64,000 bases of DNA from a virus. Positions 2,304 through 63,984 of the stretch are shown here, piece after piece. Where the stretch lies: the IMG/VR virus record IMGVR_UViG_3300049595_001870, positions 32,001 through 96,000 of that record. One strand, written 5' to 3'. The position numbers and the translations under genes were made by a program. How positions within the stretch are numbered: the first letter of the stretch is position 1; every line of letters starts with the position of its first letter. Below the pieces are notes generated by a model. It had not been told where the DNA came from and did no database searches. It saw nothing but the letters and a program-made list of their open reading frames with translations.

Positions 2304-2313
2304 ACTATTGCCC
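2304..2313 (-). promoter_or_regulatory. Putative phage late-promoter motif GGGCAATAGT
   Basis: Same or near-identical 10-mer upstream of virion genes at 5979, 54016, 59226 and 63672; variants at 7987 and 16856. Confidence 0.45.
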
Positions 2314-2318
2314 CAGAA

Positions 2319-4200: not shown

Positions 4201-4234
4201 CGGGCTATGTCCGTAGAGTGGTGATGTGACGCCG

Positions 4235-4831: not shown

Positions 4832-4849
4832 GTCGCTAGAGCCTCTCTG

Positions 4850-5973: not shown

Positions 5974-5979
5974 ATACGA

Positions 5980-7971: not shown

Positions 7972-7998
7972 GGAGTTCTCCTACCGACTAGTGTCCGG

Positions 7999-37453: not shown

Positions 37454-37892
37454 TGGACGCCGGTTCGTTCCTATCGGATTTGCTTCTGCTTACTGGACGA
37501 CGGCTCGTCCTTGCTGCCCGCTTCGGGGGCCGCCTCTTGCCGCCAGTTCTCCACGCCCTCATGGAAATGCCACGCCGCTCACGCATGATGCCGACAAGAA
37601 GCTGGTACTTAATCCGTGTATCAAGCACCCTCTTGCCTCCTGCCCACTCAACATCGGCGTGGCACTCCCCGCACAAGCTGATCAGGCTCGTCAGCCTTTT
37701 GCCACGGAGCGTCTTGGCGTGGTAGTCGATGTGATGGACGCACACGGCCTCGCGCCCGCAGCACTGACAGGTGTGTTGATCCCTGATTCGGACTCGGGCG
37801 CGTATGGAATGCCAGAGCGGTGATGCCAAGTACTCCGCATAGGTGCGAATACCGTTTGGAAAGCTATTCAAAACGGGCATCGCACAACTCAT
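37371..37892 (-). CDS. HNH endonuclease
   Basis: YLASPLW...RDQHTCQCCG...VHHIDY...LISLCGECH. Confidence 0.75.
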   Translation of the reverse strand: MSCAMPVLNSFPNGIRTYAEYLASPLWHSIRARVRIRDQHTCQCCGREAVCVHHIDYHAKTLRGKRLTSLISLCGECHADVEWAGGKRVLDTRIKYQLLVGIMRERRGISMRAWRTGGKRRPPKRAARTSRRPVSRSKSDRNEPASSDPAVDERLAFWRGMEDWQRRNWLAAE

Positions 37893-38466
37893 CCCAGTCC
37901 GGCACAGCCTCCCGGCATTGCGCCAGGATCTCTCGGCAGAAGTCCCTCAGTGCCTCATGGTCATAGCCATCACAGCTCTGCGACATGCGGTACAGCACCT
38001 GCGCGTAGCCGGCCATGAGCGCGCAGTACGTCACCGTCTCGCGGCGGCGCTCCAGCCCAAGCTCCTGGCGGATCTGGCAGCCGCGTAGGTACGCCACCCA
38101 CTCGTCCAAGATCATCAGGGCGTTGGACTCCCAGTACTTGTCGCCGGCCTGCATCAGGTAGGTCTTGTAGATCGCACCCCTGTGATCCGGCGGAATCTGG
38201 GCGAACACCTGCGCCGTCAGCAGCGGCGGAATAGGCAGGTACTCACGCTCGCCGTGGAGCATGTAGATGCCGTGCCAGCCGGCACGCCGGCCGGTGGCCA
38301 GGAAGTGCGAACTCTCATGCCCCCACGTGACCGGGCACGGTTCCCAGGCAGGGCAGTCCTCCGGCAGGCGAGACACCAAATCCCGGAGCGTTGGCGGCAT
38401 CGCCTCGGCCGGCTCCCAGAGAACCGGCAGCTCAATAGCGACGGCAAGCATCATGGCGCCCCACAT
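37864..38466 (-). CDS. Hypothetical protein
   Basis: 200 aa; TWGHESSH may be a metal-binding motif. Confidence 0.5.
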   Translation of the reverse strand: MWGAMMLAVAIELPVLWEPAEAMPPTLRDLVSRLPEDCPAWEPCPVTWGHESSHFLATGRRAGWHGIYMLHGEREYLPIPPLLTAQVFAQIPPDHRGAIYKTYLMQAGDKYWESNALMILDEWVAYLRGCQIRQELGLERRRETVTYCALMAGYAQVLYRMSQSCDGYDHEALRDFCREILAQCREAVPDWDELCDARFE

Positions 38467-39146
38467 ACAGGACCATTGCTCGCCAAGGGCCCTGGCGTGC
38501 GTTCAGACGGCCGTTCGCCCTGGACGGGTGTCCACAGGCCGGGGACTGAGATCGGGCCGTACGCCCACTCTGAGGAGCCGCTGGCGTCGAAGGACGACGA
38601 CTCCGATCGGTAGACCTCCTCCTGCACCCGGTAGCCACGGGAGCGTGGGTCTGGGCTGTCTCCAACAAAGTACCCATCCTTCCACGCCACACGGTTTGTC
38701 GGCAGGGCCGCCAGCCTGCCCGTCGCCAAGGCCAGTACATGTGCGCACTTGGCCTGCTCGGGGCGGGCCAGCCAGCCCGGCGCCGACAGTGAGTCGGGAA
38801 GCCAATCGACAGTGAACAGGTACTCGCCTGGGATCGGGCCACGCCGCGTGTAGCACACGGCCTCATGCTCCAGCAGGTAGGCAAAGACCGTCACCACCGG
38901 GCGAAATGAAAAACAATCCCAGAGCTGGCAGTTCTCCAATTCCTCAGTCGCTGCGCCCTCACGCAGGGCCAGTGCATGGATCGGTAGATTGCGGAAGTGC
39001 GCGCCGCTCTTGAGCATTACATGAAATGCCAGGGCCCTGGCCGGGTAGCTCTGTATGGCGAATGCGTAGCCCTCCTCCTGGCCAGGGCAGCCAGTGGTAA
39101 AGCTGTTGTCTACCCAGACTCGCAGGTATGGGATGTCAGCGTTCAT
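38451..39146 (-). CDS. Conserved phage hypothetical protein
   Basis: Start MNADIPYL at 39146; FHVMLKSGAHFRNLPIHAL and QLWDCFS motifs. Confidence 0.55.
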   Translation of the reverse strand: MNADIPYLRVWVDNSFTTGCPGQEEGYAFAIQSYPARALAFHVMLKSGAHFRNLPIHALALREGAATEELENCQLWDCFSFRPVVTVFAYLLEHEAVCYTRRGPIPGEYLFTVDWLPDSLSAPGWLARPEQAKCAHVLALATGRLAALPTNRVAWKDGYFVGDSPDPRSRGYRVQEEVYRSESSSFDASGSSEWAYGPISVPGLWTPVQGERPSERTPGPLASNGPVCGAP

Positions 39147-39420
39147 ACGTAATCGGCCGTATTGATCCGTGTTTCGTCCGCTCCAGCAGTCCGTCGATGA
39201 CCGCCGCGATCTTGTTGCACTGCACATCGTCCTCGTAGGCGTATATGTCTCGCACTTCCCGCAGGACGGACCGCTCCGCGTCGGTGAGCCGCAGCCGCCT
39301 TATTTCTTCTTGCAGCCATGTGTTCGCCGCCGACAGCCTCGCCGTAGCCATGTGCGTGTTGTGAGAACCAGCGGATGCAAGAGACGGCTCGGCCGCGTCT
39401 CGCGTGTTGTCAGTGTCCAT
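39136..39420 (-). CDS. Small protein starting inside attC-like site 1
   Basis: 94 aa; AGGAG SD and ATG lie within the repeat; N-terminus MDTDNTRDAAEPSLASAGS. Confidence 0.6.
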   Translation of the reverse strand: MDTDNTRDAAEPSLASAGSHNTHMATARLSAANTWLQEEIRRLRLTDAERSVLREVRDIYAYEDDVQCNKIAAVIDGLLERTKHGSIRPITYER

Positions 39421-39454
39421 ATCTCGCCGCTCCTGATCCTTGGCGTTCTGTGGC
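39361..39454 (+). repeat. attC-like recombination site 1
   Basis: GTGAGAAC-cagcg-GATgCAAGAGaCGGC...GCCGCTCCTGATC-cttggc-GTTCTGTGGC; 86 bp AGAAC to GTTCT; two extrahelical bases; 5/6-nt unpaired spacer. Confidence 0.8.
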
Positions 39455-39705
39455 TACTTGCGAGCCTCGCGGATCGCCTTTGCCATCGCATCTTGGATAC
39501 GCGGCGGTATCGGCACAGCCTGCGACTGAATCGCCTTCGGCTTCCTGCCGTAGACCAAAGGCCACACTCTCCAGTCGGCTCTGGTGTCTGCAATCAGCAT
39601 TCGCGCAACAGCATCGGCGTCCTCTTCGCAGCGAAATATCTCATGGTGGTGAAAACGCTCGCCAACGCGAACCACTGCATACGCAACGGGGGTGCGATCA
39701 CTCAT
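39454..39705 (-). CDS. Cassette A cargo protein (hypothetical)
   Basis: 83 aa; stop codon abuts site 1; start coupled to the site-2 leader peptide. Confidence 0.6.
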   Translation of the reverse strand: MSDRTPVAYAVVRVGERFHHHEIFRCEEDADAVARMLIADTRADWRVWPLVYGRKPKAIQSQAVPIPPRIQDAMAKAIREARK

Positions 39706-39707
39706 GT

Positions 39708-39782
39708 CTATACTCCGTTCGCCACAGAACCAGCGGATGCAAGAGACGGCTCGGCATCGTCCTGCGTGTTGTCATCGCTCAT
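39708..39782 (-). CDS. 24-aa leader peptide encoded within attC-like site 2
   Basis: Manual translation MSDDNTQDDAEPSLASAGSVANGV; AGGAG SD; TAG-AC-ATG coupling to 39705. Confidence 0.5.
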   Translation of the reverse strand: MSDDNTQDDAEPSLASAGSVANGV

Positions 39783-39815
39783 AGTTCGCCGCTCCTGATC
39801 CTTGGCGTTCTCACG
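39721..39815 (+). repeat. attC-like recombination site 2
   Basis: GCCACAGAAC...GTTCTCACG; first 30 and last 26 nt of the 86-bp core identical to site 1. Confidence 0.8.
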
Positions 39816-40221
39816 TTGTATCGCCGGTGCCCGGCACGGGTCGCGTCACGGGTTTATCAGTCCCGCCGCTGCCGTGTCCGCCACCGGGTTCCCCAGTTGC
39901 GGAATCTGTTCGGGCTGTCGCCGCCGGCGCGGCGTCATGATTTGTGTCAGAAAAACTCATGCGGTTTTCTTTCGGCGTGAGAACCACGCGCTGCAGCGGA
40001 CCCGCGATGGCGTCGGTTGGTTGTGGTTTCGTCAGCGGTCGCGGGCCGCTGATCTTTGGCGTTCTGTGGCTCACCTCGTCATCCACATGAGGCCAAGATT
40101 CGCTGTGCTGTAGCTCATCCACACCAGAAAGCCAGCCGGCGATCCTCGCCACAACTGTTCGATAGCGACGACGAAGTAGATGATGGCGACGATGAACACT
40201 AGTGGCGCGCTCATTCATCAC
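39811..40221 (-). CDS. ORF reading through site 3 (or 49-aa cassette B peptide from ATG at 39960)
   Basis: 136-aa open frame; TGA stop lies in the outer end of site 2. Confidence 0.4.
   Translation of the reverse strand: MMNERATSVHRRHHLLRRRYRTVVARIAGWLSGVDELQHSESWPHVDDEVSHRTPKISGPRPLTKPQPTDAIAGPLQRVVLTPKENRMSFSDTNHDAAPAATARTDSATGEPGGGHGSGGTDKPVTRPVPGTGDTT
39976..40070 (+). repeat. attC-like recombination site 3
   Basis: CGTGAGAAC-cacgc-GCTgCAGCGGaCCCGCG...CGCGGGCCGCTGATC-tttggc-GTTCTGTGGC; diverged stem but same 86-bp length and extrahelical G/A positions. Confidence 0.8.
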
Positions 40222-40229
40222 CCCACGTG

Positions 40230-40838
40230 CTAATTAGCTTTGCCTTCGCCATCGCCAGCTCCCTCTCCAGCTTTGCTATCCTCTCCCGCAACGTAGCGTT
40301 CAACTGTTTCAGTCGCTCCACCTCCCGCTGCGAATGCTCCTGCCTCTCCATCAATCAGTCCCAGCTTGTGACGCGGATAAAGAATCTCCAACAACGCGCT
40401 TGCCGGCCGTAAGAATTTCTTCGGAGCCTCCAGAATCGGCACCTCATGGCCACGCTCTCGGTCGGTCGTCTTTCCCTCTTTCCATGAGTCGTCTCTGTCC
40501 AAGATCGTCAGCCACACCCATGCCCCGGTCGGCTTGGAAAGAAACACGTAGATCAGATTGATGTGGCTTTCACGCTTCATGCCGCGCAAGTCATCGACAT
40601 ACACGGTGTCATACGGAAAGGACTCCGGCCCATCGAACTTCAGCGACCGCTCTTTCACTTCGATCGCCACCACGGCTGCGGCGTCTGGCGTATCGACATG
40701 TCCGGTGCGCTTGCAGTGCCTCTTGGCGACGATCTTGCGACCATGCGCCACCGCGCACCCGATCTTGCGCATCGTTTCCACCCACTTGCGTTCCGCGCGC
40801 TGGCCTTTAGCCAGCGCTACGGAAAATGAGCGCGCCAT
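40230..40838 (-). CDS. PD-(D/E)XK-like nuclease-fold protein
   Basis: KGQRAERK...TPD...IEVKER pattern; start assumed at MARSF. Confidence 0.45.
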   Translation of the reverse strand: MARSFSVALAKGQRAERKWVETMRKIGCAVAHGRKIVAKRHCKRTGHVDTPDAAAVVAIEVKERSLKFDGPESFPYDTVYVDDLRGMKRESHINLIYVFLSKPTGAWVWLTILDRDDSWKEGKTTDRERGHEVPILEAPKKFLRPASALLEILYPRHKLGLIDGEAGAFAAGGGATETVERYVAGEDSKAGEGAGDGEGKAN

Positions 40839-41376
40839 TGCGATTGGCTCCGAAGAATTGCCGAATGGCAGGATTCGTCTGGCAGACATCACGCCCACGG
40901 AGTACGCCCATCGCCTGCACCCTGGCGCAGCGATGACGAATCACATCTGGCATCGGATCGGTCTTGGTTATGTGACCGACGAACCAGCAAAGCTCCTCCG
41001 GGATTGGCTCGGCCTCCTCAAACTCGGCGCGGTGCGCACGCACCTGAAAGCCCCAGCGGGTGGTCCGGCCAAAGATGTCGCCGATGTCTTCATCCGTGAG
41101 AGTCGGATCGTTCATGGCTATGCAGGCCAGGCGCTCGTCGCTCGGGCAGCGACGGCAGTGCAGGTGGATGCGGATGATGGACTCAAACGCCTGCTCGGCT
41201 TGCTGGCACTGCTCGGCAACTTTTGACACACCCTCACGGTTGATCAGCACGCGGCGAAACACCTCGCGTGCGAAACCCAAGCAGTGATCCAATCGCCTCT
41301 CGCCACGTTCGCTTTTTTGCACGGGGACCCTCCTTGTTTTCGACCTGCGGAGCCGCCGGCCACGCATGATCGACAT
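40807..41376 (-). CDS. Hypothetical protein, possible HTH
   Basis: 189 aa; LTDEDIGDIFGRTTRW segment. Confidence 0.45.
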   Translation of the reverse strand: MSIMRGRRLRRSKTRRVPVQKSERGERRLDHCLGFAREVFRRVLINREGVSKVAEQCQQAEQAFESIIRIHLHCRRCPSDERLACIAMNDPTLTDEDIGDIFGRTTRWGFQVRAHRAEFEEAEPIPEELCWFVGHITKTDPMPDVIRHRCARVQAMGVLRGRDVCQTNPAIRQFFGANRNGALIFRSAG

Positions 41377-41426
41377 CGAACACCTCCCGAAGAATCACAT
41401 CAGCCGTCTGGTCCAGCAGCAGGTCG

Positions 41427-42323
41427 TTACGCTGTTCGTCCATCGATCGCATCTCCTATGCTGGTCACGCCACGCTTGCGCTCCTTGGAACGCACGTACT
41501 CGTCTCGCATGCGGGCGCGCTTCCAAGACTCGTATTCGCCCGCTGTCATCTCGCGGCCGGCGTCTGGCCGGAACACGGCACGCGGCGCCGCAGGAGCAGG
41601 CTCCGCCTCCGCGTACTCCTGAGCGCGGGACAGCCACGCCTTGAGGGCTCGGTTCCAGTCCGTCTTGCGTGCGTAGCCGCGGTTGCTCACGGCGTGCGCG
41701 TGGCACCGGGCCAGCTCGCGGTCGATGTCCACACGCGGGAAGGCTGCCCTCCAAGCCGACCGGGAGATTTCGCAGACCCCCTCAAAGCCGCCTGCCGCCG
41801 TCCAAGAAATCTTTGCAGCAGCGGGCGGACGGATTTTCGTCCGCCTCCTAATACTCTTAAGAGTATCTGGTTCTGGTTCTGGTTCTGGTTGCAGGTTGTT
41901 GACAGGGTTGACAACAGGGTTGTTGACAGGGTTGTTGACAGGGTTGACAACAAGGTTGACAACAGGGCTGGCGGGCAGTCCTTTGGCCGACCTAGCCTTG
42001 GCGACGGCCGATACCTTGCGGTCATAGGCACCCTGCTGCTTGGCCCGCTCTGCCTCCAGCCGGGGGTGCGACAGCCGCTCCTCGCTGGTGCCAGCGTCTA
42101 GGACCACCAGACGCCGCCTACAGACCGCCCAGTCTTCTGGCGACATGCCGCCCGCGATCCGGCAGCACGCCTCCATATCGTTCGGGAGGCCGCTGGAATC
42201 CCAGGCGTACAACAAGAGCCGCATGTACCCCCCAAACTGGGAGCAGGTCATGTCGGCGCAACTGGCCAGGATGTCGCGGGTGTAGACCGGCATCCAATTG
42301 AGTCCCATATCACAGTCCTCCAT
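41427..42323 (-). CDS. DUF1376/YdaU-type replication initiator
   Basis: WMPVYTRDILASCADMT...GGYMRLLLYAW...LPND N-terminus; (NPV)-repeat and PEPEPE linker. Confidence 0.75.
   Translation of the reverse strand: MEDCDMGLNWMPVYTRDILASCADMTCSQFGGYMRLLLYAWDSSGLPNDMEACCRIAGGMSPEDWAVCRRRLVVLDAGTSEERLSHPRLEAERAKQQGAYDRKVSAVAKARSAKGLPASPVVNLVVNPVNNPVNNPVVNPVNNLQPEPEPEPDTLKSIRRRTKIRPPAAAKISWTAAGGFEGVCEISRSAWRAAFPRVDIDRELARCHAHAVSNRGYARKTDWNRALKAWLSRAQEYAEAEPAPAAPRAVFRPDAGREMTAGEYESWKRARMRDEYVRSKERKRGVTSIGDAIDGRTA
41894..41965. repeat. Six 12-bp tandem repeats (GGTTGTTGACAG / GGTTGACAACAG), putative iterons
   Basis: Inside initiator gene, next to palindrome ATACTCTTAAGAGTAT (41851-41866) and hairpin GGCGGACG-N6-CGTCCGCC (41824-41845). 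Confidence 0.7.
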
Positions 42324-42331
42324 GGTGAATG

Positions 42332-42388
42332 AAACCCCCGGGGGCGCAGGAGGTAGGGGAGGCGAAACCTCCGCGCCGCACCCGGGGG
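42332..42388 (-). terminator. Branched GC hairpin between ssb and initiator (terminator or attenuator)
   Basis: CCCCCGGG outer stem with inner GGAGG-TTTCG-CCTCC; only a short U-tract. Confidence 0.45.
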
Positions 42389-42391
42389 AGT

Positions 42392-42778
42392 TCAGAAAGG
42401 GATTCCGCCGTCGTCTTCCTCAAACTTTGGCAACGCCTTTGTGGCGGCCGGCTTTGCTGGCGCAGCAGCCTTGGGTGGCGGCGGCGACATGATCTGCACA
42501 GACTGGACGGTGCAGACAAACGCAGACTTCTCCGCGCCGTCCTTGCCAGTCCACTTCTGCTCTTCAATGCGGCCGGTGAAGGCGACGCGCTGCCCCTTGG
42601 TGAGCAAGGCCAGAAGCCCTGCCGGGCACTCCCAATGCTCACAAGTCAGCCAAGTCGTCTGGTCATTCCGGCCGCCGATCGCCACGCGATAACGGCTCTT
42701 GGTCTTGCCGTTGATGTCCCGGCTCTCTGCGTCACCGCCCAGCCGCCCGGTGAAACAGCACACGTTCATGTCAGCCAT
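42392..42778 (-). CDS. ssb: Single-stranded DNA-binding protein
   Basis: MNVCCFTGRLGGDAE, TTWLTCEHW, LTKGQRVAFTGRI and acidic tail DDGGIPF. Confidence 0.92.
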   Translation of the reverse strand: MADMNVCCFTGRLGGDAESRDINGKTKSRYRVAIGGRNDQTTWLTCEHWECPAGLLALLTKGQRVAFTGRIEEQKWTGKDGAEKSAFVCTVQSVQIMSPPPPKAAAPAKPAATKALPKFEEDDGGIPF

Positions 42779-43403
42779 TGACCACCTCCTCGGCAAAAGC
42801 CCGCTCGTACGCCTGCTCCGCACGGTGGAGCAGCTCCTGATCGACCTCGCCCCGCTTGGCGAACAAACGGAACTTGTCCAGCAGCCGCTGCGACAACTCC
42901 GCGTTGCGTTCCGCCAACGCCTTGCGCAGTTCGTTCTCCGTCGCAGCCGCCTCCAGCACGGCCCGTGGGTTCTTCGCCGCCGGCTTCACTTCTTGCGGCT
43001 GAGACACGGCGTTGGCGTCGTCGTCGTCGCAGCCACTCAGGGCCCCGGTGAGGCAGATCAGCAGCATGCGATGGGCGTAGGTCAGCGCGCTTTTAAAGCC
43101 CTGCATGTCCTGCTTGGAGAAAAACAGCGGTACCGACGCATTGATCTCCTCGCCGCTCCTGTGCCGCAGGCACCCCTCCGCAAACCACAGGCCGTCCACC
43201 AGCCGAGGATGGACGGTCATCGGAGCGAAGCCGTTGGCCGTCAGCGCCTCGGAGATGGCCGCATCGATGTCGCCAACCGTGCTATACGGAGTACCGCGTG
43301 GGTTGGACGGACCTTTGAAAAACGTGTTCAGCCCGCTCTGCTTGGGCTGCCGGAACTGCTGCTTGGCCTTGGCCAGGGCAGCGACGATTGCCTTCTCCTC
43401 CAT
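42771..43403 (-). CDS. ERF-family ssDNA annealing protein
   Basis: ALAKAKQQF...N.FF...YSTVGDI and QGFKSALTYAHR...DDDDAN. Confidence 0.8.
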   Translation of the reverse strand: MEEKAIVAALAKAKQQFRQPKQSGLNTFFKGPSNPRGTPYSTVGDIDAAISEALTANGFAPMTVHPRLVDGLWFAEGCLRHRSGEEINASVPLFFSKQDMQGFKSALTYAHRMLLICLTGALSGCDDDDANAVSQPQEVKPAAKNPRAVLEAAATENELRKALAERNAELSQRLLDKFRLFAKRGEVDQELLHRAEQAYERAFAEEVVNG

Positions 43404-44251
43404 CAGTACACCTCCTCCTTGTTGCGAACCCACGCCGGAATCTCCAGCTCCCTGATCTCCCCGTGATCCAGCGGCAGGTACTCACCTGTCGCCCTCCGCA
43501 GACGAATCAACTCCATCGTTGACAGCATTCGCTCGCCGCACTCAGCGACGTAGTCATGCGGCAGGTAGTACACATGGCATGCGTACGGAGCCGCCGTCTG
43601 GACAAACACAAACGGCATCCGGAACGGACCCATTCCGATGGCCATGGCGCCGTTGACATACAGCCATTCCTGCTCGCCGTAGCCGTAGTCAAAGACCGAG
43701 CGATAGAGCTGGTCCCACTTGGCACTGGTGGTTTTTAGATCCCACCACCTGTCCTGGCAGCAGCCGTCCGGACGAACCTTCAGTCGGTGGCCCTCAAGAT
43801 CAAAGAACACGCTGACCTGCGTCTCGGTGGTGTTCTCCACCAGATCGCGGGCGGCGCTGTTGGCCATGAGCGAGTCCAGCATCTTGCTGTACTGCTCGCA
43901 CTGATCCTGCGTGCAGACGATCACGCCGATCTGCTCGGCCTCCCACGCCTTGTAGGCGTTGGTGCTGCGCGATCCGTTGGACCCCAGCACCTCTTTCGGC
44001 GGGACGCGGATCTGCTCCGCAAGGGTCTTGCCCTCGCAGACGCCTTGGACGATCTGATCGAACTCGCTGCCTCGCCTAGTGGCAGAGTTGCCTGAGAAGA
44101 GCGAGTTGCCTGCGTCCATCCACTGCTGTACCTCGCCGCCACCTTTGGCCACCGCCGAGATGAATGAGCGGCTGTCGAATCCCTTCAGTCGGTGGTATTC
44201 TTCCCCCGGCATGCCGATGACCTTAGTCGGCAGCTTGTCAATGCTGTGCAT
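43403..44251 (-). CDS. Exonuclease VIII-like PD-(D/E)XK nuclease (RecE/DUF3799 type)
   Basis: EEYH, SRS, TETQVS, KVRPDG...WDLKTT, YGEQ..Y; paired with ERF. Confidence 0.8.
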   Translation of the reverse strand: MHSIDKLPTKVIGMPGEEYHRLKGFDSRSFISAVAKGGGEVQQWMDAGNSLFSGNSATRRGSEFDQIVQGVCEGKTLAEQIRVPPKEVLGSNGSRSTNAYKAWEAEQIGVIVCTQDQCEQYSKMLDSLMANSAARDLVENTTETQVSVFFDLEGHRLKVRPDGCCQDRWWDLKTTSAKWDQLYRSVFDYGYGEQEWLYVNGAMAIGMGPFRMPFVFVQTAAPYACHVYYLPHDYVAECGERMLSTMELIRLRRATGEYLPLDHGEIRELEIPAWVRNKEEVY

Positions 44252-44543
44252 TTATGCACTCCCCCTAGAAAAAGAAGCCCCGTCCATGGGGCGAGAAAGC
44301 GATCCGTCAGCCCCTCCGTAGGCGGCGGCCCTCCATGAACCAGCGGACGAACACGGGCAGCTCGCCCAGTGCGATGAGCGTCAGAACGACGCCAGTCATT
44401 TTCACAGTCAGAGCTGCGAAAATGGCGGCCATGAGGAGGCCGCGTAAGATCAGGTAGAGGCGACCAGTGCCGTGGCCAATTGAGCCACGGGCGCTTAGTG
44501 GGTAGAACCCCTCCACGGCCGGCGCTTCTCCCGGAGGAACGCC

Positions 44544-45368
44544 ATGACGATCGCGGAGCTTGCCAACAAATACTGCACCAGAGTCGGAGCCAAGGCCAGC
44601 TACGCCCACCAGTTCCGTGTCCTGACCAGACGCCTGCCTTGGCAGGTCGCCCAACTGTCCGAGGACCGAATCGACGCCTACCTGACCGATGCCCTGGGAC
44701 ATCTCGCGCCCTCCACCGTGGCCAAGCACAGAAGGATGCTGGCCTGCCTCCTCCAGTTCGCACGTAGCGAACGCCTCCTGAACAAACGCACAGTACCACG
44801 CCCCCTGCGAAGGGTCAAGTGCCCCCCGCCCAATCCGCGGGCGTGGAGCCACGCGGACATCCGTGCGCTGCTGTCGGTAGCCGAGCATCTGAAGGGCGGT
44901 ACGCGGCAATGCGCGTACTCGCTGATTGTGCCGGCGTGGATACTGGCTGCGTACAGCACAGGGCTGCGGCGCCAGGATCTGCTGGATCTGCGACATGACG
45001 CCATCCGTGGGTCTAGAGCAGCTGTTCGTCAGGCCAAAACTGGCTGGCCGCATGTCGTCAACCTTGATCCAGCCTCCATTGCTGCGATCAGACGACTCCC
45101 CCGAAAAGGACCGCGCGTGTTTGGCGATCTGATTTCGGCGGTGCAGATCGTAAGGGTAATGCGGAGACTTGTCAAGCAAGCCGGCCTGGACGGCACCGGC
45201 AAATGGCTCAGACGTAGTGGCGCAACGTATTGCGAGGCCGCGGGATACGACGCAAGCGGCCATCTCGGGCACAAGTCGCCGGGCATGAAGATCCACTACA
45301 TCGACCGGCTGCTGCTCGCGGAGATCAGGCCAGACGAGCCGCGCGTGCCGCCGGTGCTAGCTACCTAG
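44544..45368 (+). CDS. Tyrosine recombinase / integrase
   Basis: YSTGLR (R), QAKTG (K), KWLRRS (variant of HxLR), GHLGH (H), HY (Y); GGAGG SD. Confidence 0.85.
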   Translation: MTIAELANKYCTRVGAKASYAHQFRVLTRRLPWQVAQLSEDRIDAYLTDALGHLAPSTVAKHRRMLACLLQFARSERLLNKRTVPRPLRRVKCPPPNPRAWSHADIRALLSVAEHLKGGTRQCAYSLIVPAWILAAYSTGLRRQDLLDLRHDAIRGSRAAVRQAKTGWPHVVNLDPASIAAIRRLPRKGPRVFGDLISAVQIVRVMRRLVKQAGLDGTGKWLRRSGATYCEAAGYDASGHLGHKSPGMKIHYIDRLLLAEIRPDEPRVPPVLAT

Positions 45369-48300
45369 CAGCAGCGCCATCGGATCCTGCTGATCGCGCT
45401 GGCGGGCGCGTTTCGCGGCATCGGACTGGATCGTCCTGTACAGCAAGTACAGGCGCCTTTGGTCTGGCGTCAGGCGATCCAGAGCGTCCTCGGGCACGGT
45501 GATGTTCTCGTACGTCCGGACGCCCGGGGTGGTGGAGAGCGTGGCGTTAAGGACTTGGCGGGCCGCCTGCTGGCGGGCGCGATCCTCATCCACATCGCTC
45601 AACTTTAATCCGGCCAACAGATTGAACGCGGTCTTCATCAGCGCATCGCCGGGCGTTAGCCGATCGTCGGTGAGCTGTCGGTAGGTGCTGATGGCGCGCG
45701 ACCCAAACGGAATGAAATTACTGGCGAACTGCTCCAGCGGGCGGCCGATCGGTCCCAGTCCCTGCTCCAAGACCGAATACAGGTCGGACAGATCGCGGCC
45801 AGAATACAGTTGGCGATTGGTGGCGTATTCGATCGGCGCTTTGATGAGCGGCGTCGTCTGTCCGAGGATGTTGCTGCCTGTCTTGGCAAGCGTGTCGGCA
45901 AAAACGGCCGCCGCAGTTCCGCCTGCCCCAGGCGTGAAGAGGTTAATGGACTCAAACGGCAAGTCGATGTTGGTCAGATACCGCTGGAGCCCCTCGCCGG
46001 GCGACCAGCCTTCCGGCAAAGGGATCGCGGCCGTCTGCCGCAGATGCTCGGGGACGAAGTTTTCTTCGCTCGGCTCCGACGCCCGGGAGATGGCGCGGAT
46101 GCTCTGACCTTGCAGTCCGCCCGGCTGATACAAAAGCCGATCAGCGATCTGCGGGATAATTCGTCGCTGAAAGCTATAGAAGGGCAGGATTTTCTTCAGC
46201 CAGCGGCTCTCAAAATCGCTGAAGCTGGCCGGGCTGTAATCCAACTGAGCAAGGCGAACGGCGTCTCCGGCGGCGCCCGGGTCCGTGCCTCGCCGTATCT
46301 GCGTGAGGAACGCGCCGGTTCTGAGCGTGTCTTCGACCGCGCTTCCGACGGCGTCGTTGATCTTAAGTATCGGGTTTGTGTTCGTCGGGCGCGGCCTGCG
46401 CAAGACGCCGACGCCTCGCAAAGAGGTGAAGTCGTTGAAGAAGTCCAGCCAACTTCTTCCGGTCTGGCCACGCAACTCACCAACGGTGCTGGAGATTGTG
46501 TCGGACTGTCCGCCAGTGTAGGTGGACCGCATCGCCTCTTCGGGGATCGACAAGTCGTCGATGACGTTTCCGCTGGCCATGCGCTGTCCGCCGGTCTGCG
46601 CAAGGAATTCGCGGATGCGTTCTGCGTCTGTGAGCTGTTCGTAACCAGGCGCACGGCGAAGCCTTCGGGCAAGCGGCTGGTAGTTGCCCTGGCTGGCGCG
46701 GTAGGCTGCGAACTGATCTAGTGGGTTGAACATCCCAAACGCGGCGTTGGAGAATTCGCCGCTGTACAAATTGCGCGTGTGGAACGCCGGGTTCGCCAGT
46801 GCGCCGACTTTGAATGCATTGGTGAACTGCTGTATGGCGCCCAGCAGCCCGGCCTCGGCTTCCGGAACACGCGGGCGCACTGCCAGAGTCTGGAGGGATT
46901 GCACAAGCCTGTCTGGTACGGACACGGCCGCCGGGTCCGAGCTGACCTGCGATTGCCACATGGCTTTGAACGACTCTCGGTTAAACCCGAGCGCCTCGGC
47001 GGCATCCAGCACGCTTTGCGCGCCGCCGCCCGGCACGGAGGTTGGCGGCAACGGAATGACGGCCTCTTGCAGCGCCGGCACTATCTCGGCCACGTTGGAT
47101 GTGACACGCATGCGCCCTTGCTCATAGCGGCGCAGGCGATCCATGTAGTTGGTGTCAAAGAGTCCCGTGCCGGTTTCTGCAAACTGCCTGTCGGCGTCAC
47201 GCAAGAGATCAACGAGGGCCGTTTCCTTGCGTTCGATGTCCTCCGTCACCCGCTGCATCATCCGCCTTTGACGGCGAGGCGTGGCGTTGAGGTAGTCCGG
47301 AGAGTTCTGGAGCCGGCGCAACTGCGCCTGGTACGGCCTCTCTACGTTGAGCGTGTCGAAAGCCTGCCGCAGTAGCACGCGGGCGTTTGTGTCGTCGGCG
47401 GCCAGGAGACTGTCCTGCAATTGCCGGGCGTTCAGGTTCGGATCGCCGCCCGTAAGCCTGCGGAAAGTCCGACTGGCGCCTGGGATGTCGGTGTAGTCCC
47501 GCCTGCCACGGCCGAAGTTGTCGTTGGTGGCGAGCAGCACATTGCCAGGAGAGTACGGGCTGGCGGTGCGCTGGGCGGCGTTCGCTCGCTCTGGAACCTG
47601 TGGGTCCAGCCACTGCTTTACTTGGCGCACAAACCAATTCTCGCCCGTGGACCCACGCCAGCCATCCAGCTCTAGCCCTAAGTCTCTGGCCAGACGCTCC
47701 ATTTCTGGCCCGACTTGTACGCCGGCGTCCCGGAGGACACGGAACTCAGGCACGTTCTCTAGAACCCAGTCGGCAACCGGGTCATAGCTTGTGCGGCCCA
47801 GCGGAGCGCCGGACATCGACGGCCCTAGCAGGTCTGGCGACTCCACGTAGTCCGTGAGCGCGTTTTGAATTGTCCGGTTGTTGAAGTTGCGGTACGCCTC
47901 TGGTATCGGAGTACCGTTCGGCATCACATCCGGAACCTGCGCGTTCATTGCATCGTAAAGCTGGCGCGTCCGCAGCGTGCCCGCCTCCTCCTGCAAAATG
48001 CGCTCGGTATTGCGGGCTACCCGGTTACGCCACTGGATCGCTGGATCCATGACGGGGCCCGCATCGGCGGTCAGCAGCGCGCGGGCGCCGGACACCAACG
48101 GGCCGATGCCTGGGGCGCTTTTGCTTGCCTCGCCTGTGCGATCTAAGAACCGCGCCAGAGAGTCGCCGGCCTGGGACATTGTTCCCGTGCCGCCGGCCTC
48201 ACCGACCGTCCAGCCAAGATTGGTGCCTGGCACACGCACATCCATCAGTGCGGCGGCGCGCTGCGTCAGATCGTCCGGATCGACTCCGAAGCGCTCGGCA

Positions 48301-59627: not shown

Positions 59628-60832
59628 CAGATCGCCCTCCACCGAGATTCCGAAGTGTCATAGACCAGAAGGACGGCGTGCCCGTTGGCCGTGACGGCGT
59701 AGTCTGTGGCGCCCTTGGCCAGCACCCGGTTGGCTTCTGCGGAGCTGGTGTGCGCGTGCTTCACCGTGATGGTGTAGGTCGCGCCGGTGTTTACCAACAG
59801 CACGGCAACGCCTGTTGACCCACCTGTGAATCCTGTGAGGTCCCTGTTGGTGGTGGCCGCAGAAATGCGCACCACATCCAAAGCTCCCAGAGACAAATTG
59901 TGCGTGTCCTGCGTCAGGGCCGACACGCTCCCCATGACGATCAGGTACGGATCCGTTCCTCCACGCATATGCTGCGATGCGTGCGTTGCGCCAGCCGCGC
60001 CGACCGACGCTGCACTGAGCGACACCGCACCTGTAACGCCGTTGACCGACGCCACTGGGCCGGTGGTGCCGGCGATCAGCGCAACAGCCGTGACGAAATT
60101 ATCAACTGCCGTCGTCGCATGAGTATGCACCGTCGGCGCCGCACCGACCGAAGTGGCGCTGAGCGACACGGCACCCGTGACGCCGTTGACCGACGAAACG
60201 TCGCCGCCGCCGCCACCGCCCGAAATCGTCACTGCGCCCGTAAGCCCATTGACCGAGGTCACGGGCGCAGCAGTTGCAGCGATCGCCACCACGGCAGCGC
60301 CAAAATTGACGATGTCTCCGGTCGAATGATTGTGCGAGGCTGTTGCAGCGCCGACCGAAGCTGCGGCAAGGCTCACCGCACCAGTGAGGCCATTGACTGA
60401 AGCGACCGGAGTTGCCGTACCAATGACAGTCACCACGGCCGTGCTGAAGTCGCTGATGTCCTTGGCCACATGCCCGTGAGACGCCAAGGCAGCGCCGACT
60501 GCCGTGGCGTTGAGTGACACGGCGCCAGTCTGCCCGTTGACGGACGACACAGGCGCGGCCGTGGCCGCAATAGCAACGACGGCTGTGTTGAAGTTGCTAA
60601 TGTCGCCAGTCGCATGATTGTGCGATGCGGGCGCCGCGCCAACTGAAGTAGCGGCAAGGCTGACCGCACCGCTTAGACCGTTCACGCTCGCCACGGGGCC
60701 GGACAAAGCCGCCAACGCACCAGCCGTGCCCTGGTAGGTGGTTTTGCTGTCGCTGCTGTTGAACAGCACTACGGAATCGATCGCCACCGTCCCGGCCGGC
60801 AGCGAGTTGATTTTGATTTGCGTGACGGACAT
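59627..60832 (-). CDS. Tail fibre with SVNG / HxH repeats
   Basis: Six V.SVNG.(T/S)GAV motifs, roughly 48-aa period with SHxH; HASQH..GGTDP. Confidence 0.7.
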   Translation of the reverse strand: MSVTQIKINSLPAGTVAIDSVVLFNSSDSKTTYQGTAGALAALSGPVASVNGLSGAVSLAATSVGAAPASHNHATGDISNFNTAVVAIAATAAPVSSVNGQTGAVSLNATAVGAALASHGHVAKDISDFSTAVVTVIGTATPVASVNGLTGAVSLAAASVGAATASHNHSTGDIVNFGAAVVAIAATAAPVTSVNGLTGAVTISGGGGGGDVSSVNGVTGAVSLSATSVGAAPTVHTHATTAVDNFVTAVALIAGTTGPVASVNGVTGAVSLSAASVGAAGATHASQHMRGGTDPYLIVMGSVSALTQDTHNLSLGALDVVRISAATTNRDLTGFTGGSTGVAVLLVNTGATYTITVKHAHTSSAEANRVLAKGATDYAVTANGHAVLLVYDTSESRWRAI

Positions 60833-61160: not shown

Positions 61161-61702
61161 ACGTTCCTCCCCTTAACTTTGTAGGCGTGCTGGGCGATGA
61201 TCTTCTCTCTCAGTTCCCCGACCTTGGCTCGGGGATGTTTCTTACGCTCCTTGCGCAGCTCGTCACGGATGATCGACTCCGAAAGCAGCACGCGCTTCGG
61301 CGGCGCTAGCCCCGGATCGTAGTTTACGCTGCCCTCCACCTTGCGACTACGCCGCTTGGCCACTCGCAGTACATCGTCGGAAGACGACACCCACGCTTCA
61401 GGATCGCGCCAGCCGCGGCTGTCAGCCAAGCCGCCGCAGTAATACTTTCCGGAGATGTTAATGCCGGCGGCCCGCGCCTCGCGCGCCAGCCACTTGGCCT
61501 GAAGCGGAGGCATGTCGTCCAACTGCTGCTGGTTCATGCGGCCCTCCATGAACGCGCGGTCGGTGCCCTTTGTCCCTGGGGGGGTCTGTAAGGCGACCAT
61601 GAGGGCCCACCGCTCACCATGCGGCAGTGCGGCTAGATACACCCGCTGAACCTCGGGGCTGGCTTCAGCGATCTCAGGCGGGAGCTTGCTGCGGTTCTTC
61701 AT
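61157..61702 (-). CDS. Conserved hypothetical protein downstream of portal, copy B
   Basis: Paralogue of 5443..5973; likely start MKNRSK. Confidence 0.6.
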   Translation of the reverse strand: MKNRSKLPPEIAEASPEVQRVYLAALPHGERWALMVALQTPPGTKGTDRAFMEGRMNQQQLDDMPPLQAKWLAREARAAGINISGKYYCGGLADSRGWRDPEAWVSSSDDVLRVAKRRSRKVEGSVNYDPGLAPPKRVLLSESIIRDELRKERKKHPRAKVGELREKIIAQHAYKVKGRNV

Positions 61703-63656
61703 TTTGTGGTGGGGGTGGAGGTGGCGGGGGCGGGACCATGAACTCGGAAACATCCATCTGATTAACCTTGCCCCATTGCGCCATCACGCCATTGAACAGC
61801 TCCGGCCTGCCGGCCTGGAGCAGGCCCTGGGCAACCGGCATGATGACCTGCATGAAGTTGTTCAGGTTTTCCGTCTTGGTGGCGATGTTGGGCTTGCGGG
61901 CTGACCCGGCTTCGACGCGGTAGGCGTATTCCCGGACGATGGACTCCGGGTCTTCGTTCTGCACGTGCATCTGCCACGCTTGAGCAGCCATAGGTCCAAG
62001 GAGAGGAGCAACGTCCTGTGGGTACACCATCCAACGGGCCAGCAGGGCTTCCTTGCGAGCCACCTCGGATAAAGCGTCTTCCAGCGTATTGGCATAGTCG
62101 TCGGGGCGGACGCTGATCTGTTCCGCCTTCACGTTTGCTTCTGCCGCCGACCGGAACTGTGCCCGCGTCATGCCGTAAATAAGCTCGGTCAGCCCAACCC
62201 GTCTATCAAAGAGATTGGTCACCTCCGAGATGATGTTGTACATGTCTTGCGACACGCCGGGCATTTGGAAGACGCTGATGACATCGTTGACAGAGCGGCC
62301 GATGGCCTCGCTGATCTCAACGACGTTGAAGCCATTTTCCGATTTGTTGTCTAGGATCTTGGCCTTGATATCCGGATCGGCCGCCTTCGCCACGCCGACG
62401 AGCGTCTGTGAAGAGGTGGCAATGCGGGTGGCGAGAAAGCTCATCGCCCAGTTGATGAACCGCAGCTCTCCAATTCCGGGTTTTATAATGCTCACCGGCC
62501 AGGAGTAGCCCGGCTGCCCGTGCCAAGCAAGGAGCGTGAATGGCCAGCCGTTCGGCTCGGCCCAGAATGGGATCGGCCACTGTGCCGCCATGAACATCGC
62601 CTGCGGCACGCCGGAATCATCGACCGGCTCCTGCAACATGGCCGGCGGCACGTTCAGCGGAAACTCCACGCCCTCGGCGACGACGATGTAACAGTTGGGC
62701 CCCATCGCGTCGAATACGCCGCGCAGGTCCTTGTCGGCGTCCTTCAAACGATCTCCGAAGCCCGTCTTGCTGTAGATTTCCCAGTAGCAGATCAGGTCGT
62801 TGGTCTTGCCGTTCTTCTTCTTGTGCAGATAGCCGCGGTCGTTCTGGTCGGCCCGGGAAGAATAGGATTCGATGTGACCCTTGAGATCGTCCCGAGACAG
62901 GCCGAATTTGGCGGCCACCTCATCAATCGGCTGCACCCGCTTGCGGGCGGCCCAGCGGATGTCCTCGTACTCGTCGGCATCCGGGTCCCAGACCAAATTG
63001 TCGATGGAGTCGAAGAACGATCCGGCCATCCGCACCTGGGCGCCGGGTGGGGCGTACAGCTCATGCCACCAGACCGACGCACCCTTGATGAAAGCCTCTT
63101 CCACCACCTTGCGGGAGTGGCGCTTCAGGTCTAGCTCGTTGGGTGTGTAATTCAGGTAATCCTGCAAAAGCTGGCTGATGAGCTTGCGCCGCTCAAACAG
63201 CATGCCCTGCTGCTGCATCATCTGCTGGTACATCTGCTCGCCAGGGTCTGGCATCATCACCGGCTGGCCGTCTGGGCCCATCACTGGCTGGCCGTCTGGG
63301 CCCATCTGCGGAGTGGGTGGCTGCGGGAAGATGCCCAAGAGCTGGGGGCCGATGATGGGGTATTCCTTCGGCGTCACCGCCCGCACTGGATTCCGGTGGT
63401 GAATCACCGCCGTAAACAGCCGGACGGCCTCCCAAACGCGGTTGACGACCATCCGGAAGGACGGCATGGTCAGGCCGCGGTTGTAGCCACGCACCCCGCT
63501 GGCGGCCTCCGTGCCCCACATGGCGTCGGGATCGGAGGAATAGAAGCCCATAGCCTCCTTGGCGTCCAAGGAGAATGGCTTCTTGTGTTCCTCGGCCTGC
63601 TTAATGCACTCCAGCCAACGGGTGACAATGGGGCGCAGCGGGTTTTCGTCGGGCAT
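61674..63656 (-). CDS. Portal protein, copy B
   Basis: 660 aa, collinear with 5980..7971 throughout but with many substitutions. Confidence 0.8.
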   Translation of the reverse strand: MPDENPLRPIVTRWLECIKQAEEHKKPFSLDAKEAMGFYSSDPDAMWGTEAASGVRGYNRGLTMPSFRMVVNRVWEAVRLFTAVIHHRNPVRAVTPKEYPIIGPQLLGIFPQPPTPQMGPDGQPVMGPDGQPVMMPDPGEQMYQQMMQQQGMLFERRKLISQLLQDYLNYTPNELDLKRHSRKVVEEAFIKGASVWWHELYAPPGAQVRMAGSFFDSIDNLVWDPDADEYEDIRWAARKRVQPIDEVAAKFGLSRDDLKGHIESYSSRADQNDRGYLHKKKNGKTNDLICYWEIYSKTGFGDRLKDADKDLRGVFDAMGPNCYIVVAEGVEFPLNVPPAMLQEPVDDSGVPQAMFMAAQWPIPFWAEPNGWPFTLLAWHGQPGYSWPVSIIKPGIGELRFINWAMSFLATRIATSSQTLVGVAKAADPDIKAKILDNKSENGFNVVEISEAIGRSVNDVISVFQMPGVSQDMYNIISEVTNLFDRRVGLTELIYGMTRAQFRSAAEANVKAEQISVRPDDYANTLEDALSEVARKEALLARWMVYPQDVAPLLGPMAAQAWQMHVQNEDPESIVREYAYRVEAGSARKPNIATKTENLNNFMQVIMPVAQGLLQAGRPELFNGVMAQWGKVNQMDVSEFMVPPPPPPPPPQNEEPQQAPA

Positions 63657-63671
63657 GGAGGGCTCCTAACT

Positions 63672-63681
63672 ACTATTGCCC
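63672..63681 (-). promoter_or_regulatory. Putative late-promoter motif GGGCAATAGT before portal B
   Basis: Identical to motifs at 2304 and 59226. Confidence 0.45.
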
Positions 63682-63984
63682 CTCGGCCTTCTTCAGGCCC
63701 ACCTTCCGCTCCAGCAGAGAAACCCGCTCAGACAGGGCCGCAATGTCCGTCTGTCGCTTGTGTTCCCAGTACCCGTACCGCTTCCAGTCCGGGAAATCCT
63801 CCACGCCGGGGTCATCGACATGATGCGCGGACGGCTTGTCCACCGGCCCGCCGATGCCGAAGGCCACCAGATTCAGCGTCCGGGACGACGCCGTGACGAC
63901 CAGGGCCGGCACGGGATCGGCCTCCTTGTGCGGGTAGAAGAGAACCCAGTCGCCGACGACGGCCTTGGGCATGACGTAGCTCAT
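63673..63984 (-). CDS. Conserved hypothetical protein upstream of portal, copy B
   Basis: 103 aa, paralogue of 7999..8319. Confidence 0.6.
   Translation of the reverse strand: MSYVMPKAVVGDWVLFYPHKEADPVPALVVTASSRTLNLVAFGIGGPVDKPSAHHVDDPGVEDFPDWKRYGYWEHKRQTDIAALSERVSLLERKVGLKKAEGQ

Follow-up and report, generated by a model that had tools for sequence, protein, structure and literature searches.

Inverted attC-family sites with in-site translation start signals in a phage genome

Genes and sites at the array

The window analysed in this study, a stretch of 64,000 nt from a phage record (IMGVR_UViG_3300049595_001870, positions 32,001 to 96,000), carries three attC sites interspersed with small genes on the minus strand, and a tyrosine recombinase gene on the plus strand. 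Scores refer to R1, a covariance model built from phage copies of the site, and X and Y denote predicted cassettes.

39136-39420, minus: 94-aa gene, consisting of a 19-aa attC-encoded leader, HNTH and a body from MATARLSAANTW
39364-39449, minus: attC site 1, with AGGAG at 39434-39430 and ATG at 39420; R1 94.6 bits on minus, 6.4 on plus
39446-39807, minus: predicted cassette X, 362 nt, with the site 2 body and 24-aa leader, the 83-aa gene and TAGCCACAGAA
39454-39705, minus: 83-aa cargo gene of cassette X, its TAG lying in the flank of the R' half-site of site 1
39708-39782, minus: 24-aa leader ORF starting in the loop of site 2, with a TAG-AC-ATG junction to the 83-aa gene
39726-39811, minus: attC site 2, with AGGAG at 39796-39792 and ATG at 39782; R1 94.2 bits on minus, 7.4 on plus
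39808-40061, minus: predicted cassette Y, 254 nt, beginning with the C behind AGAA in site 3 and ending with AGAA of site 2
39811-39960, minus: possible 49-aa ORF of cassette Y, its TGA overlapping the first A of site 2
39980-40065, minus: attC site 3; R1 70.0 bits on minus
40071-40214, minus: 47-aa gene, membrane-like, immediately upstream of the array and kept in the array-less sister genome copy
44544-45368, plus: 274-aa tyrosine recombinase (PF00589, 27.7 bits), not an integron integrase

Sites 1 and 2 are 86-nt direct repeats with 88% identity, and all three sites share the outline AGAAC...GGTTCT. A 17-mer from the 5' end (minus strand) of sites 1 and 2 occurs three times in the window (with 0, 0 and 1 mismatch) against 0.21 copies expected, the third copy being site 3; beyond these three, no further copies of the site were found in the whole 117,778-nt record. 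In site 2 the AGGAG lies in the 5' arm and the ATG in the loop, and the 3' arm is translated as ..EPSLASAGS. The centre of site 3 is GC-rich, non-coding and devoid of an ATG, and closely resembles chromosomal attCs of Planctomycetota.

A previous sequence-only reading of this DNA had described AGGAG and ATG on the minus strand of sites 1 and 2 with similar leaders, and our coordinates agree with it. The leader of site 1 (MDTDNTRDAAEPSLASAGS) opens the 94-aa ORF and is fused to it, as had been proposed, while that of site 2 (MSDDNTQDDAEPSLASAGS) lies within the 24-aa ORF, which is joined through TAG-AC-ATG to the 83-aa ORF and may thus be translationally coupled to it; an identical junction recurs in another locus, L203. 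The stops described upstream of both sites were likewise located, TAG 39454-39456 standing 4 nt before site 1, within the flank of its R' half-site, and TGA 39811-39813 overlapping the first base of site 2. At site 3 the TGA of the 47-aa gene (40071-40073) stands 5 nt before the site and is followed by GCCAC. The same reading had site 3 read through in frame, and a 136-aa frame (39811-40221, minus) is indeed open through it; this is probably due to chance, since another frame of the 3' arm is used than in the leaders and the frame overlaps the conserved 47-aa gene.

The 94-aa gene has 267 relatives, most of which are called with a leader, and several leader types occur among them. Its internal ATG at 39351 lacks an SD, and the in-site start is the only SD-preceded one; its stop codon shares bases with the start of the following gene, which is a phrog_3704 homologue. 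Searches of Pfam and PHROG returned no family match for the 83-aa cargo gene, nor for the 49-aa ORF, whose low complexity and weak SD make it a doubtful gene. The idea that the 49-aa ORF, which follows site 3, starts with a decayed leader was rejected, its alignment score being no higher than that of shuffles.

A sister genome in the same record carries a homologue of the site 1 gene with its own SD and no attC; hence the array represents an insertion/deletion difference of about 700 nt between both genomes. Within 34000-46000, conservation with related phage contigs is limited to the attC sites and the 5' part of the gene of site 1. A blastn search with 37000-43000 found no match among 50,697 deposited phage genomes. 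An exact scan of IMG/VR with the 17-mer returned 60 loci, of which only 17 held the element, the rest being chance matches in unrelated genes. The inverted, start-carrying form was found in more than 119 IMG/VR stretches, with up to 15 sites in 4.8 kb, and minimal site forms of 45 nt are present in related phages.

Membership in the integron attC family, strand and cassette-end scars

An attC site, as the term is applied here, is an imperfect palindrome whose R''/R' boxes keep the AAC...GTT triplets. According to Bouvier 2009 (PMC2727003), it also has a central spacer that stays unpaired, two or three extrahelical bases restricted to one of the arms, and a terminal structure that varies. The aligned copies display each of these elements: the AAC/GTT R box is paired in 40-41 of 41 copies, with a G after AAC in most, the spacer forms an unpaired 5x4-nt internal loop, two single-base bulges (alignment columns 68 and 75, 6 nt apart) share the 3' arm of the folded strand, and the terminal loop measures anywhere between 5 and about 40 nt. 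Compensatory changes affect 9 of the 17 stem pairs, and 98.4% of the cells in the stem alignment are paired, compared with 84% in shuffles and 29-50% when the partners are slid. Wobble pairs are confined to the sense strand of the phage (9 G.U, 0 A.C). Single-sequence folding energies, computed for both ssDNA and RNA, were not significant (z from +0.8 to -1.9), sites 1 and 2 folding no better than their shuffles, and the case for structure therefore relies on covariation.

In bacterial genomes R1 produced 325 matches at 80 genome loci, nearly all of them in Planctomycetota, a phylum for which an attC covariance model has been published (Ghaly et al. 2021, PMC8352920). A manually written regular expression proved too insensitive for the chromosomal sites, and the covariance model was used in its place. 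All five genomes tested contained full-length TIGR02249 integrases (362-433 bits, cut-off 265 bits), with one to three such IntI genes per genome alongside the same site family, and in 4/4 loci the attC arrays adjoin the 5' side of intI on its coding strand. By this comparison the three sites of the window belong to the integron attC family, and the minus (coding) strand of the phage corresponds to the attC bottom strand, the recombinogenic one in its folded state. The plus strand had already been taken as the top strand of attC-like sites with genes on the minus strand, which is borne out by the intI-adjacent arrays and by plus-strand R1 scores of only 6-7 bits at the three window sites. The classical core consensus GTTRRRY / RYYYAAC is not matched, the top-strand R' reading GTTCTGT or GTTCTCA with only GTT in agreement. 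Chromosomal Planctomycetota sites adjoining intI deviate likewise (GTTCG, GTTAG, GTTAT, GTTCT), and the deviation looks like a phylum-level variant rather than a ground for exclusion. The likely host phylum is Planctomycetota, for which the attC family and a handful of MAG labels are the sole grounds.

The orientation of the cassettes is reversed in the phages. In chromosomal arrays the longest ORF runs opposite to the model strand in 55 of 67 cassettes, whereas genes, SDs, ATGs and stops of the phage arrays are all found on the model strand. The canonical polarity, a top-strand gene with attC at its 3' end, is thus absent from the phage array, and the features read on the mRNA place attC 5' of the gene and not 3'. 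As a strand test the longest open frame is weak in these GC-rich short phage cassettes (the model strand is open in 50/57 and the other strand in 33/57), and the strand call accordingly relies on the SD, ATG and stop features.

Successive sites bear the scar of integron crossover in the sequence of their flanks. In 41/57 and 34/62 pairs, the right flank of a site complements the left flank of the next one for 3 nt or more past the core, as against 7/72 (10%) and 12/149 (8%) when both flanks are taken from the same site and 9-11% for random pairs. Variant cores match the next site in 11 of 13 cases (e.g., GTTAT followed by ATAAC). At the locus itself, the ends of cassette X (GTTCTGTGGC / GCCACAGAAC) are exact complements, and so are the ends of cassette Y (GTTCTCACG / CGTGAGAAC); a search for a remnant partner half-site at the outermost ends of the array yielded nothing above chance. 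RNase III-type processing sites, REP/RAYT elements, MITEs and homologous-recombination 'linkers' were also considered as identities for the repeats and set aside, given the intI-adjacent arrays and the cassette-end scars.

Duplicated chromosomal cassettes provided the position of the crossover that was used to delimit cassettes X and Y. Body and right flank only are shared in 22 pairs of duplicates, body and left flank only in none, and the first two bases of xxAAC vary; the crossover is therefore placed between AGAA and C (AGAA/C), upstream of the SD, in keeping with the integron crossover at G/TT, which on the bottom strand is AA/C. Pairs of phage sites with identical body and one shared flank were sought for the same purpose, and 65 of 66 near-identical pairs share neither flank, so that in phages this position is taken by homology with the chromosomal arrays. 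A cassette moved by an integrase with this crossover would keep its own leader and form a self-contained translation unit, and shuffling would alter only the stop-bearing end of the preceding gene. This result contradicts the earlier proposal that each site supplies a start to whatever follows it and that rearrangement would create new fusions. The several leader types on one gene family would call for recombination inside the conserved arms and not for the canonical crossover.

Translation starts within the sites

Our survey of the phage sites revealed a start pattern that is specific to phages and fixed in frame. An SD and an ATG in the leader frame, open to the end of the site, occur in 35 of 55 unique long phage sites compared with 0/148 chromosomal sites; the other two frames of the same 55 sites score 2-3. 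In a separate set of 71 loci outside model building, 96 of 134 long sites carry SD and ATG in the leader frame, against 13 and 4 in the others. The same frame is kept by at least 8 different loop sequences. As a sequence pattern the start module is real, and the claim that the sites carry an SD and a start has been upheld well beyond the window.

Whether the leader occurs on one protein family only was a check set beforehand. The 35 distinct leader ORFs include 31 bodies, which fall into at least 15 unrelated clusters, so that the leader is not confined to a single family and the refuting outcome did not arise. Short leaders that are coupled to the next start make up 4/35 and 8/92, and they stop at or beside the following ATG. 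Leader residues outside the arms vary freely; the leader peptide itself therefore seems unselected. The SD is paired within the hairpin, which in terms of regulation could equally mean that initiation is repressed.

These observations can be combined into a proposed mechanism. The three sites would bound two complete cassettes and stand in front of a third gene in the early region of the phage. The variable loop and the adjoining stem were presumably recoded in the phage lineage to hold SD and ATG. The reading frame set by this ATG crosses the 3' arm (..A-S-A-G-S) and then continues directly as the cargo gene, or else it ends as a short leader with coupling to the start of the cargo itself; the stop of the cargo falls in or beside the far R' half-site. 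If the leaders are translated, a ribosome terminating at the base of the hairpin might open the stem and free the next SD. A cassette of this kind could be moved, presumably by a host IntI if recombination is still going on, to any position in a polycistronic early transcript and would still be translated.

Competing explanations, related systems and implications

We found no integron integrase (TIGR02249) in this record or in five related phage records. On this ground the phage array is classed as a CALIN, a cluster of attC sites without an integrase, and the enzyme for recombination would have to come from the host or be of another kind. The reading that we consider probable is that of a phage attC CALIN with mirror-image, start-carrying cassettes, each of them a self-contained translation unit and presumably movable by host IntI. 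A candidate within the phage is the 274-aa tyrosine recombinase (44544-45368), which has weak Xer-like matches and no match to TIGR02249, and whose homologues accompany the array in 5/5 related array-bearing phage records. With no IntI found in phages, this co-occurrence would suit a phage-specific cassette system in which the sites are recombined by the phage enzyme and not by host IntI. A role of this enzyme at the sites is possible but unsupported, and we regard such a system as highly unlikely: a paralogue is also encoded by the sister genome of this record, which has no attC, so that the enzyme does not track the sites, the protein is without any TIGR02249 signal and may be a lysogeny or resolution enzyme common to the lineage, and the host genomes combine full-length IntI genes with the same site family.

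The missing integrase in the six phage records would also agree with sites that are derived from attC but are no longer recombined and act at the RNA level only, as translation-coupling or gating hairpins or as hairpins that stabilise or process the long early mRNA. Sequestration of the SD in the stem and stops at the hairpin base are classic features of coupling, the wobble pairs favour the sense strand, i.e., the mRNA, and expression of integron arrays has been reported to depend on translation of the upstream cassette (PMC11511950). Against this, the flank and core complementarity (41/57, 34/62 and 11/13) joins the two ends of a cassette and not those of one site, which makes sense only for an excised circular cassette and not for an RNA hairpin; moreover, phage copies show no variation in the R box, spacer and bulges that IntI requires, and only one of the two sister genomes has the array. 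An RNA-only function is on this evidence unlikely. Conversely, the sites may work as attC while the in-site SD, ATG and leaders are idle, genes starting further downstream and the open frame being a by-product of GC-richness. The 3' arm is stop-free in every frame, leaders differ in their residues outside the arms, the SD is concealed by the hairpin, and site 3, the 45-nt sites and other start-less sites precede genes with their own SD, all of which would be expected if the starts were not used. We nevertheless judge this quite unlikely, because SD and ATG stand in one frame in 35/55 and 96/134 sites, against 2-13 in the other frames and 0/148 in chromosomes, and at least 8 different loop sequences maintain that frame; the gene of site 1 has no alternative SD-preceded start, in contrast to its attC-less homologue, and short leaders end at or beside the ATG that follows.

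The start-carrying phage CALIN shares with the sedentary chromosomal integrons of Planctomycetota the covarying hairpin with R box, spacer, two one-arm bulges and variable loop, the complementarity of cassette ends and the crossover AGAA/C, and site 3 comes close to the chromosomal consensus. It differs from them in having its genes on the bottom-strand side with attC 5' of the gene, in lacking intI and attI, in short cassettes of about 250-450 nt and in loops with SD and ATG (0/148 in chromosomes). Phage CALINs have been published by Qi, Rajabal, Ghaly, Tetu and Gillings (2023, PMC9892861), whose account likewise describes attC clusters in phage genomes devoid of an integrase and reports that IntI1 recombined 5 of 6 phage attCs tested. 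Two arrays of virulent phages are described there with cassettes in the direction typical of bacteria and another with divergent attC directions; the array section of that paper makes no mention of inverted polarity, in-site starts or leaders, which in our data extend across a lineage. We found no published description of the inverted, start-carrying attC form.

An analogous start is known from ORF-11 and ORF-18 in attI1 of class 1 integrons (Hanau-Bercot et al. 2002, reviewed in PMC8876359). ORF-11 is a small reading frame, equipped with an SD and an ATG, inside a recombination site; it delivers ribosomes to the next cassette by coupling (PMC8876359), as the phage leaders would do if translated. 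Each integron has a single ORF-11, which lies in attI across the crossover and serves the cassette that happens to be inserted first, whereas the phage start is located in attC, once per cassette, downstream of the predicted crossover, and would stay with its own gene. Cassette arrays have further been described as polycistronic mRNAs in which expression depends on translation of the upstream cassette (Carvalho et al. 2024, PMC11511950); there attC lies 3' of the gene and lacks initiation signals. A start in every phage cassette would secure the upstream translation on which arrays of that type depend.

It is about equally plausible as its contrary that widespread, probably Planctomycetota-infecting phages keep small early genes as mirror-image cassettes, in which attC would be both the recombination site and a portable 5' initiation module composed of SD, ATG and flexible linker.

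Integrons are usually viewed as bacterial devices whose cassettes consist of a promoterless gene followed by attC. In the phages considered here attC would be used in reverse and be dual-coded for translation. If this is true, host integrases could shuffle accessory genes between phages, every cassette being translatable in a phage operon but antisense, and hence silent, in a host integron. A polarity barrier is predicted from this arrangement, as phage cassettes in host integrons, and host cassettes in phages, would be antisense to the resident promoter. It would also show that an attC hairpin can accommodate an SD in the stem and translation through its 3' arm, which would help in designing synthetic cassettes. 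The arrays would then explain in concrete terms how phage early regions come to be mosaic gene by gene, and would link the accessory-gene pools of phages to the integron integrases of their hosts.

Hairpin sites of the array and of related phages

Three attC-type sites lie in the window, and no further copy was found across the 117,778-nt virus record.

39364-39449, minus strand: site 1, 86-nt repeat, 88% identical to site 2
39726-39811, minus strand: site 2, 86-nt repeat, 88% identical to site 1
39980-40065, minus strand: site 3, third 86-nt copy, with only its ends in common with sites 1 and 2

The common ends read AGAACGCCAA[AG]GATCAG ... GGTTCT, and the centre of site 3 is different and GC-rich. 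Genes around the array are all on the minus strand and include an Erf-like annealing protein, an SSB, a DUF1376 replication protein, a RecE-like exonuclease and a phrog_3704 homologue, a content usual for an early or replication region of a phage. The DUF1376 gene contains a 12-nt tandem repeat (GGTTGTTGACAG-like, window 41894-41977) coding for an NPV-type repeat run, and two small ORFs with HNH-type Cys/His motifs stand side by side about 1.5 kb downstream of the array (window 36986-37892, minus strand). A 144-nt unit repeated five times with 65-73% identity (window 59981-60697) lies within a 401-aa minus-strand ORF, which may encode a repeat-domain structural protein.

Pattern and regular-expression searches of IMG/VR revealed 41 distinct copies of the hairpin on 17 viral contigs, comprising bare hairpins of 45 nt, sites of 84-87 nt with a non-coding centre and sites of 85-87 nt with a Shine-Dalgarno sequence (SD) and an ATG in the centre. 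The stem derived from the alignment consists of AAC/GTT, a 5x4-nt internal loop, 4 bp, a one-base bulge, 6 bp, a further one-base bulge, at least 4 bp and a variable loop. Compensatory double changes occurred at 9 of 17 stem pairs and 98.4% of cells were paired, compared with 84% in shuffles and 29-50% with the partners slid; single-sequence folding energies had no significance taken alone. When 12 kb of the window were compared with the 17 contigs, matches fell only at the sites and in the 5' portion of the gene behind site 1. The hairpin covaries and is conserved well above its surroundings. The related viral contig L013 (IMGVR_UViG_3300045999_007667, 249-5058) carries 15 co-oriented sites in 4.8 kb, nearly one per small gene, and its 45-nt minimal sites have a loop of just 5 nt, below every chromosomal site examined.

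Relation to Planctomycetota integrons and site polarity

A gapped pattern scan over 185,579 species genomes returned at least 120 matching stretches, and almost all of the matches listed belonged to Pirellulaceae, Planctomycetaceae, Kuenenia and their relatives. R1, the covariance model built from the phage copies, detected 325 copies in 80 of the loci listed, which form co-oriented arrays with a spacing of roughly 170-1,700 nt. Full-length integron integrases were present in all five genomes tested (TIGR02249, 362-433 bits, cut-off 265 bits); at all four integrase loci having an R1 match a few hundred bases separated the start of the array from the intI 5' end, and in one genome each of two intI genes is flanked on a single side by sites extending over about 30 kb. 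Hairpin anatomy agrees with the attC definition of Bouvier et al. 2009 (PMC2727003): the central spacer is unpaired, extrahelical bases are confined to one arm, the terminal structure varies, and on the bottom strand AAC is followed by G. The phage sites deviate from the classical GTTRRRY consensus, as do the chromosomal sites adjoining intI. The hairpin is a member of the attC family found in Planctomycetota integrons; for Planctomycetes attCs a model had been published earlier (PMC8352920). Phage-type arrays (high scores, start-carrying or 45-nt sites) were also present on short MAG-binned contigs (L087, L113, L114, L124, L141, L142), which are probably mis-binned phage contigs, since several of these MAGs are not Planctomycetota (Methylocystis, Beijerinckiaceae).

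At every integrase locus the intI coding strand is the strand matched by R1, and the longest ORF of chromosomal cassettes is opposite to it in 55 of 67; the matched strand is therefore the attC bottom strand. R1 scored 94.6, 94.2 and 70.0 bits on the minus strand of the window, on which the window genes are coded, and 6-7 bits on the plus strand. The backward orientation of the sites with respect to their genes, proposed in the sequence-only reading, is therefore correct, and the match of R1 to the coding strand provides independent comparative evidence for this polarity. Between chromosomal duplicate cassettes, the site body and right flank were common to 22 pairs and the left flank to none, and the first two bases of xxAAC varied, which places the crossover at xxAA|C, the position of the canonical bottom-strand cut.

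Cassette ends, the sister genome and the putative recombining enzyme

The right flank of site 3, GTTCTCACG, is the exact complement of the left flank of site 2, CGTGAGAAC, and the right flank of site 2, GTTCTGTGGC, is complementary to the left flank of site 1, GCCACAGAAC; within any one window site, left and right flank do not match. Based on this complementarity, the window contains a site heading the 94-aa gene and two complete cassettes:

40061-39808, minus strand: complete cassette between sites 3 and 2
39807-39446, minus strand: complete cassette between sites 2 and 1

In phage arrays, complementarity of at least 3 nt past the core was found in 41 of 57 successive pairs, against 7 of 72 same-site flanks and 11% of random pairs. 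In 11 of 13 cases a variant core recurred in complementary form at the following site (GTTAT then ATAAC, GTTAG then CTAAC, GTTCG then CGAAC), and 71 additional viral loci outside model building gave 34 complementary pairs among 62 successive ones (controls 8-9%). An excised circular cassette requires such end-to-end pairing, and a function in RNA only leaves it unexplained.

The same record holds a second, related genome copy without attC, where a homologue of the body of the 94-aa gene, with an SD of its own, comes directly after the 47-aa membrane gene; the array is therefore an insertion/deletion difference of about 700 nt between sister genomes. The two genomes are in tandem (window 5450-8172 versus 61167-63843; G000:C1:4000-22000, L306, versus window 36000-46000) with a repeat period of about 55.7-57 kb and 65-81% DNA identity of shared genes, the attC array being in the second copy only.

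No integron integrase was found in this record or in five related phage records, all of which encode a small divergent tyrosine recombinase, here the following:

44544-45368, plus strand: tyrosine recombinase, 274 aa, on the opposite strand, flanked by the exonuclease gene and a gene of 1,219 aa

This protein is weakly Xer-like (27 bits), with homologues of 26-31% identity in 5 of 5 related phage records, and it does not track the sites, because the attC-less sister genome has one too. The simplest reading of these gene contents would be a host IntI acting in trans.

Putative translation starts within the sites and the fate of the leader

Sites 1 and 2 contain an ATG preceded by AGGAG at 9 nt. 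The 94-aa ORF, which has no alternative start with an SD, is fused to the 19-aa leader of site 1, and site 2 has a leader ORF of 24 aa, its TAG being separated by AC from the ATG of the 83-aa ORF. The upstream ORF's stop codon lies 0-5 nt ahead of each of the three sites. All features listed in the sequence-only reading (SD, ATG, two 19-aa leaders, fusion, coupling junction and stops) were thus recovered.

In the set of unique sites 70 nt or longer, a start module (SD-preceded ATG, 3' arm read ..A-S-[A/R]-G-S and open to the site end) was present in 35 of 55 phage sites versus none of 148 chromosomal ones, the other two frames giving 2-3 matches. The independent 71 viral loci carried it in 96 of 134 sites (other frames 13 and 4). 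Of the 92 complete ORFs in these loci, 84 lead into a body no shorter than 15 aa, and the other 8 are short leaders that in some cases end in a TAG-AC-ATG, TAATG or ATGA junction. A stop lies within 12 nt ahead of the site or overlaps its start at 123 of 136 sites. The same frame is kept by at least 8 different loop sequences. In the first set, the bodies of the 35 ORFs with a leader form at least 15 clusters, among them, judged by eye, DUF551-like, methyltransferase-like and membrane proteins, so the leader is not confined to one protein family, which was the outcome named in the sequence-only reading as refuting it.

The SD of sites 1 and 2 is paired within the stem, which a ribosome stopping at the hairpin base could plausibly open. 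ORF-11 in attI1 (PMC8876359) is the closest analogue in translation, and expression of integron arrays depends on upstream-cassette translation (PMC11511950).

In the protein collection the family of site 1's gene is made up of 267 clusters, one of them with the label Planctomycetia, and 73 of the 120 proteins listed bear an ASxGS-type leader, of several types, within the first 35 residues. Its members (window 39136-39351, proteins P0001-P0120) combine a nearly invariant N-terminal stretch, MATARLSAANTWLQEEIKRLRLTD.ER, with very different C-terminal halves, which suggests recombination within the gene too. In L055 (278-352) a decayed site before this family has lost 12 nt of the 3' arm and still supplies the in-frame ATG; it appears to be an attC surviving merely as a gene start.

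Since the crossover is upstream of the SD, a cassette moved by integrase retains the hairpin body, SD, ATG and leader of its gene, and canonical rearrangement would alter only which stop-bearing gene end comes ahead of the hairpin, contrary to the proposal that rearrangement creates new fusions. The finding of one gene family with several leader types, once with a site short of 12 nt in the 3' arm, implies occasional exchange within the conserved arms, for which homologous recombination would be the simplest putative route; Erf, SSB and an exonuclease are encoded by the phage. The frame said to read through site 3 is open; it is probably a product of chance in 62% GC DNA, as it uses a different frame of the 3' arm and overlaps the conserved 47-aa gene, which stops just before the site.

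As a whole, the earlier observation is confirmed and its interpretation partly supported, in polarity and start module and not in fusions arising from rearrangement; the function of the phage sites is inferred from sequence patterns alone. Phage-borne attC clusters are known from the 17 attC clusters without integrase (CALINs) reported by Qi et al. 2023 (PMC9892861), who also report recombination of 5 of 6 tested phage attCs by IntI1. A full-text literature search found no description of inverted cassettes having the gene's start in attC.
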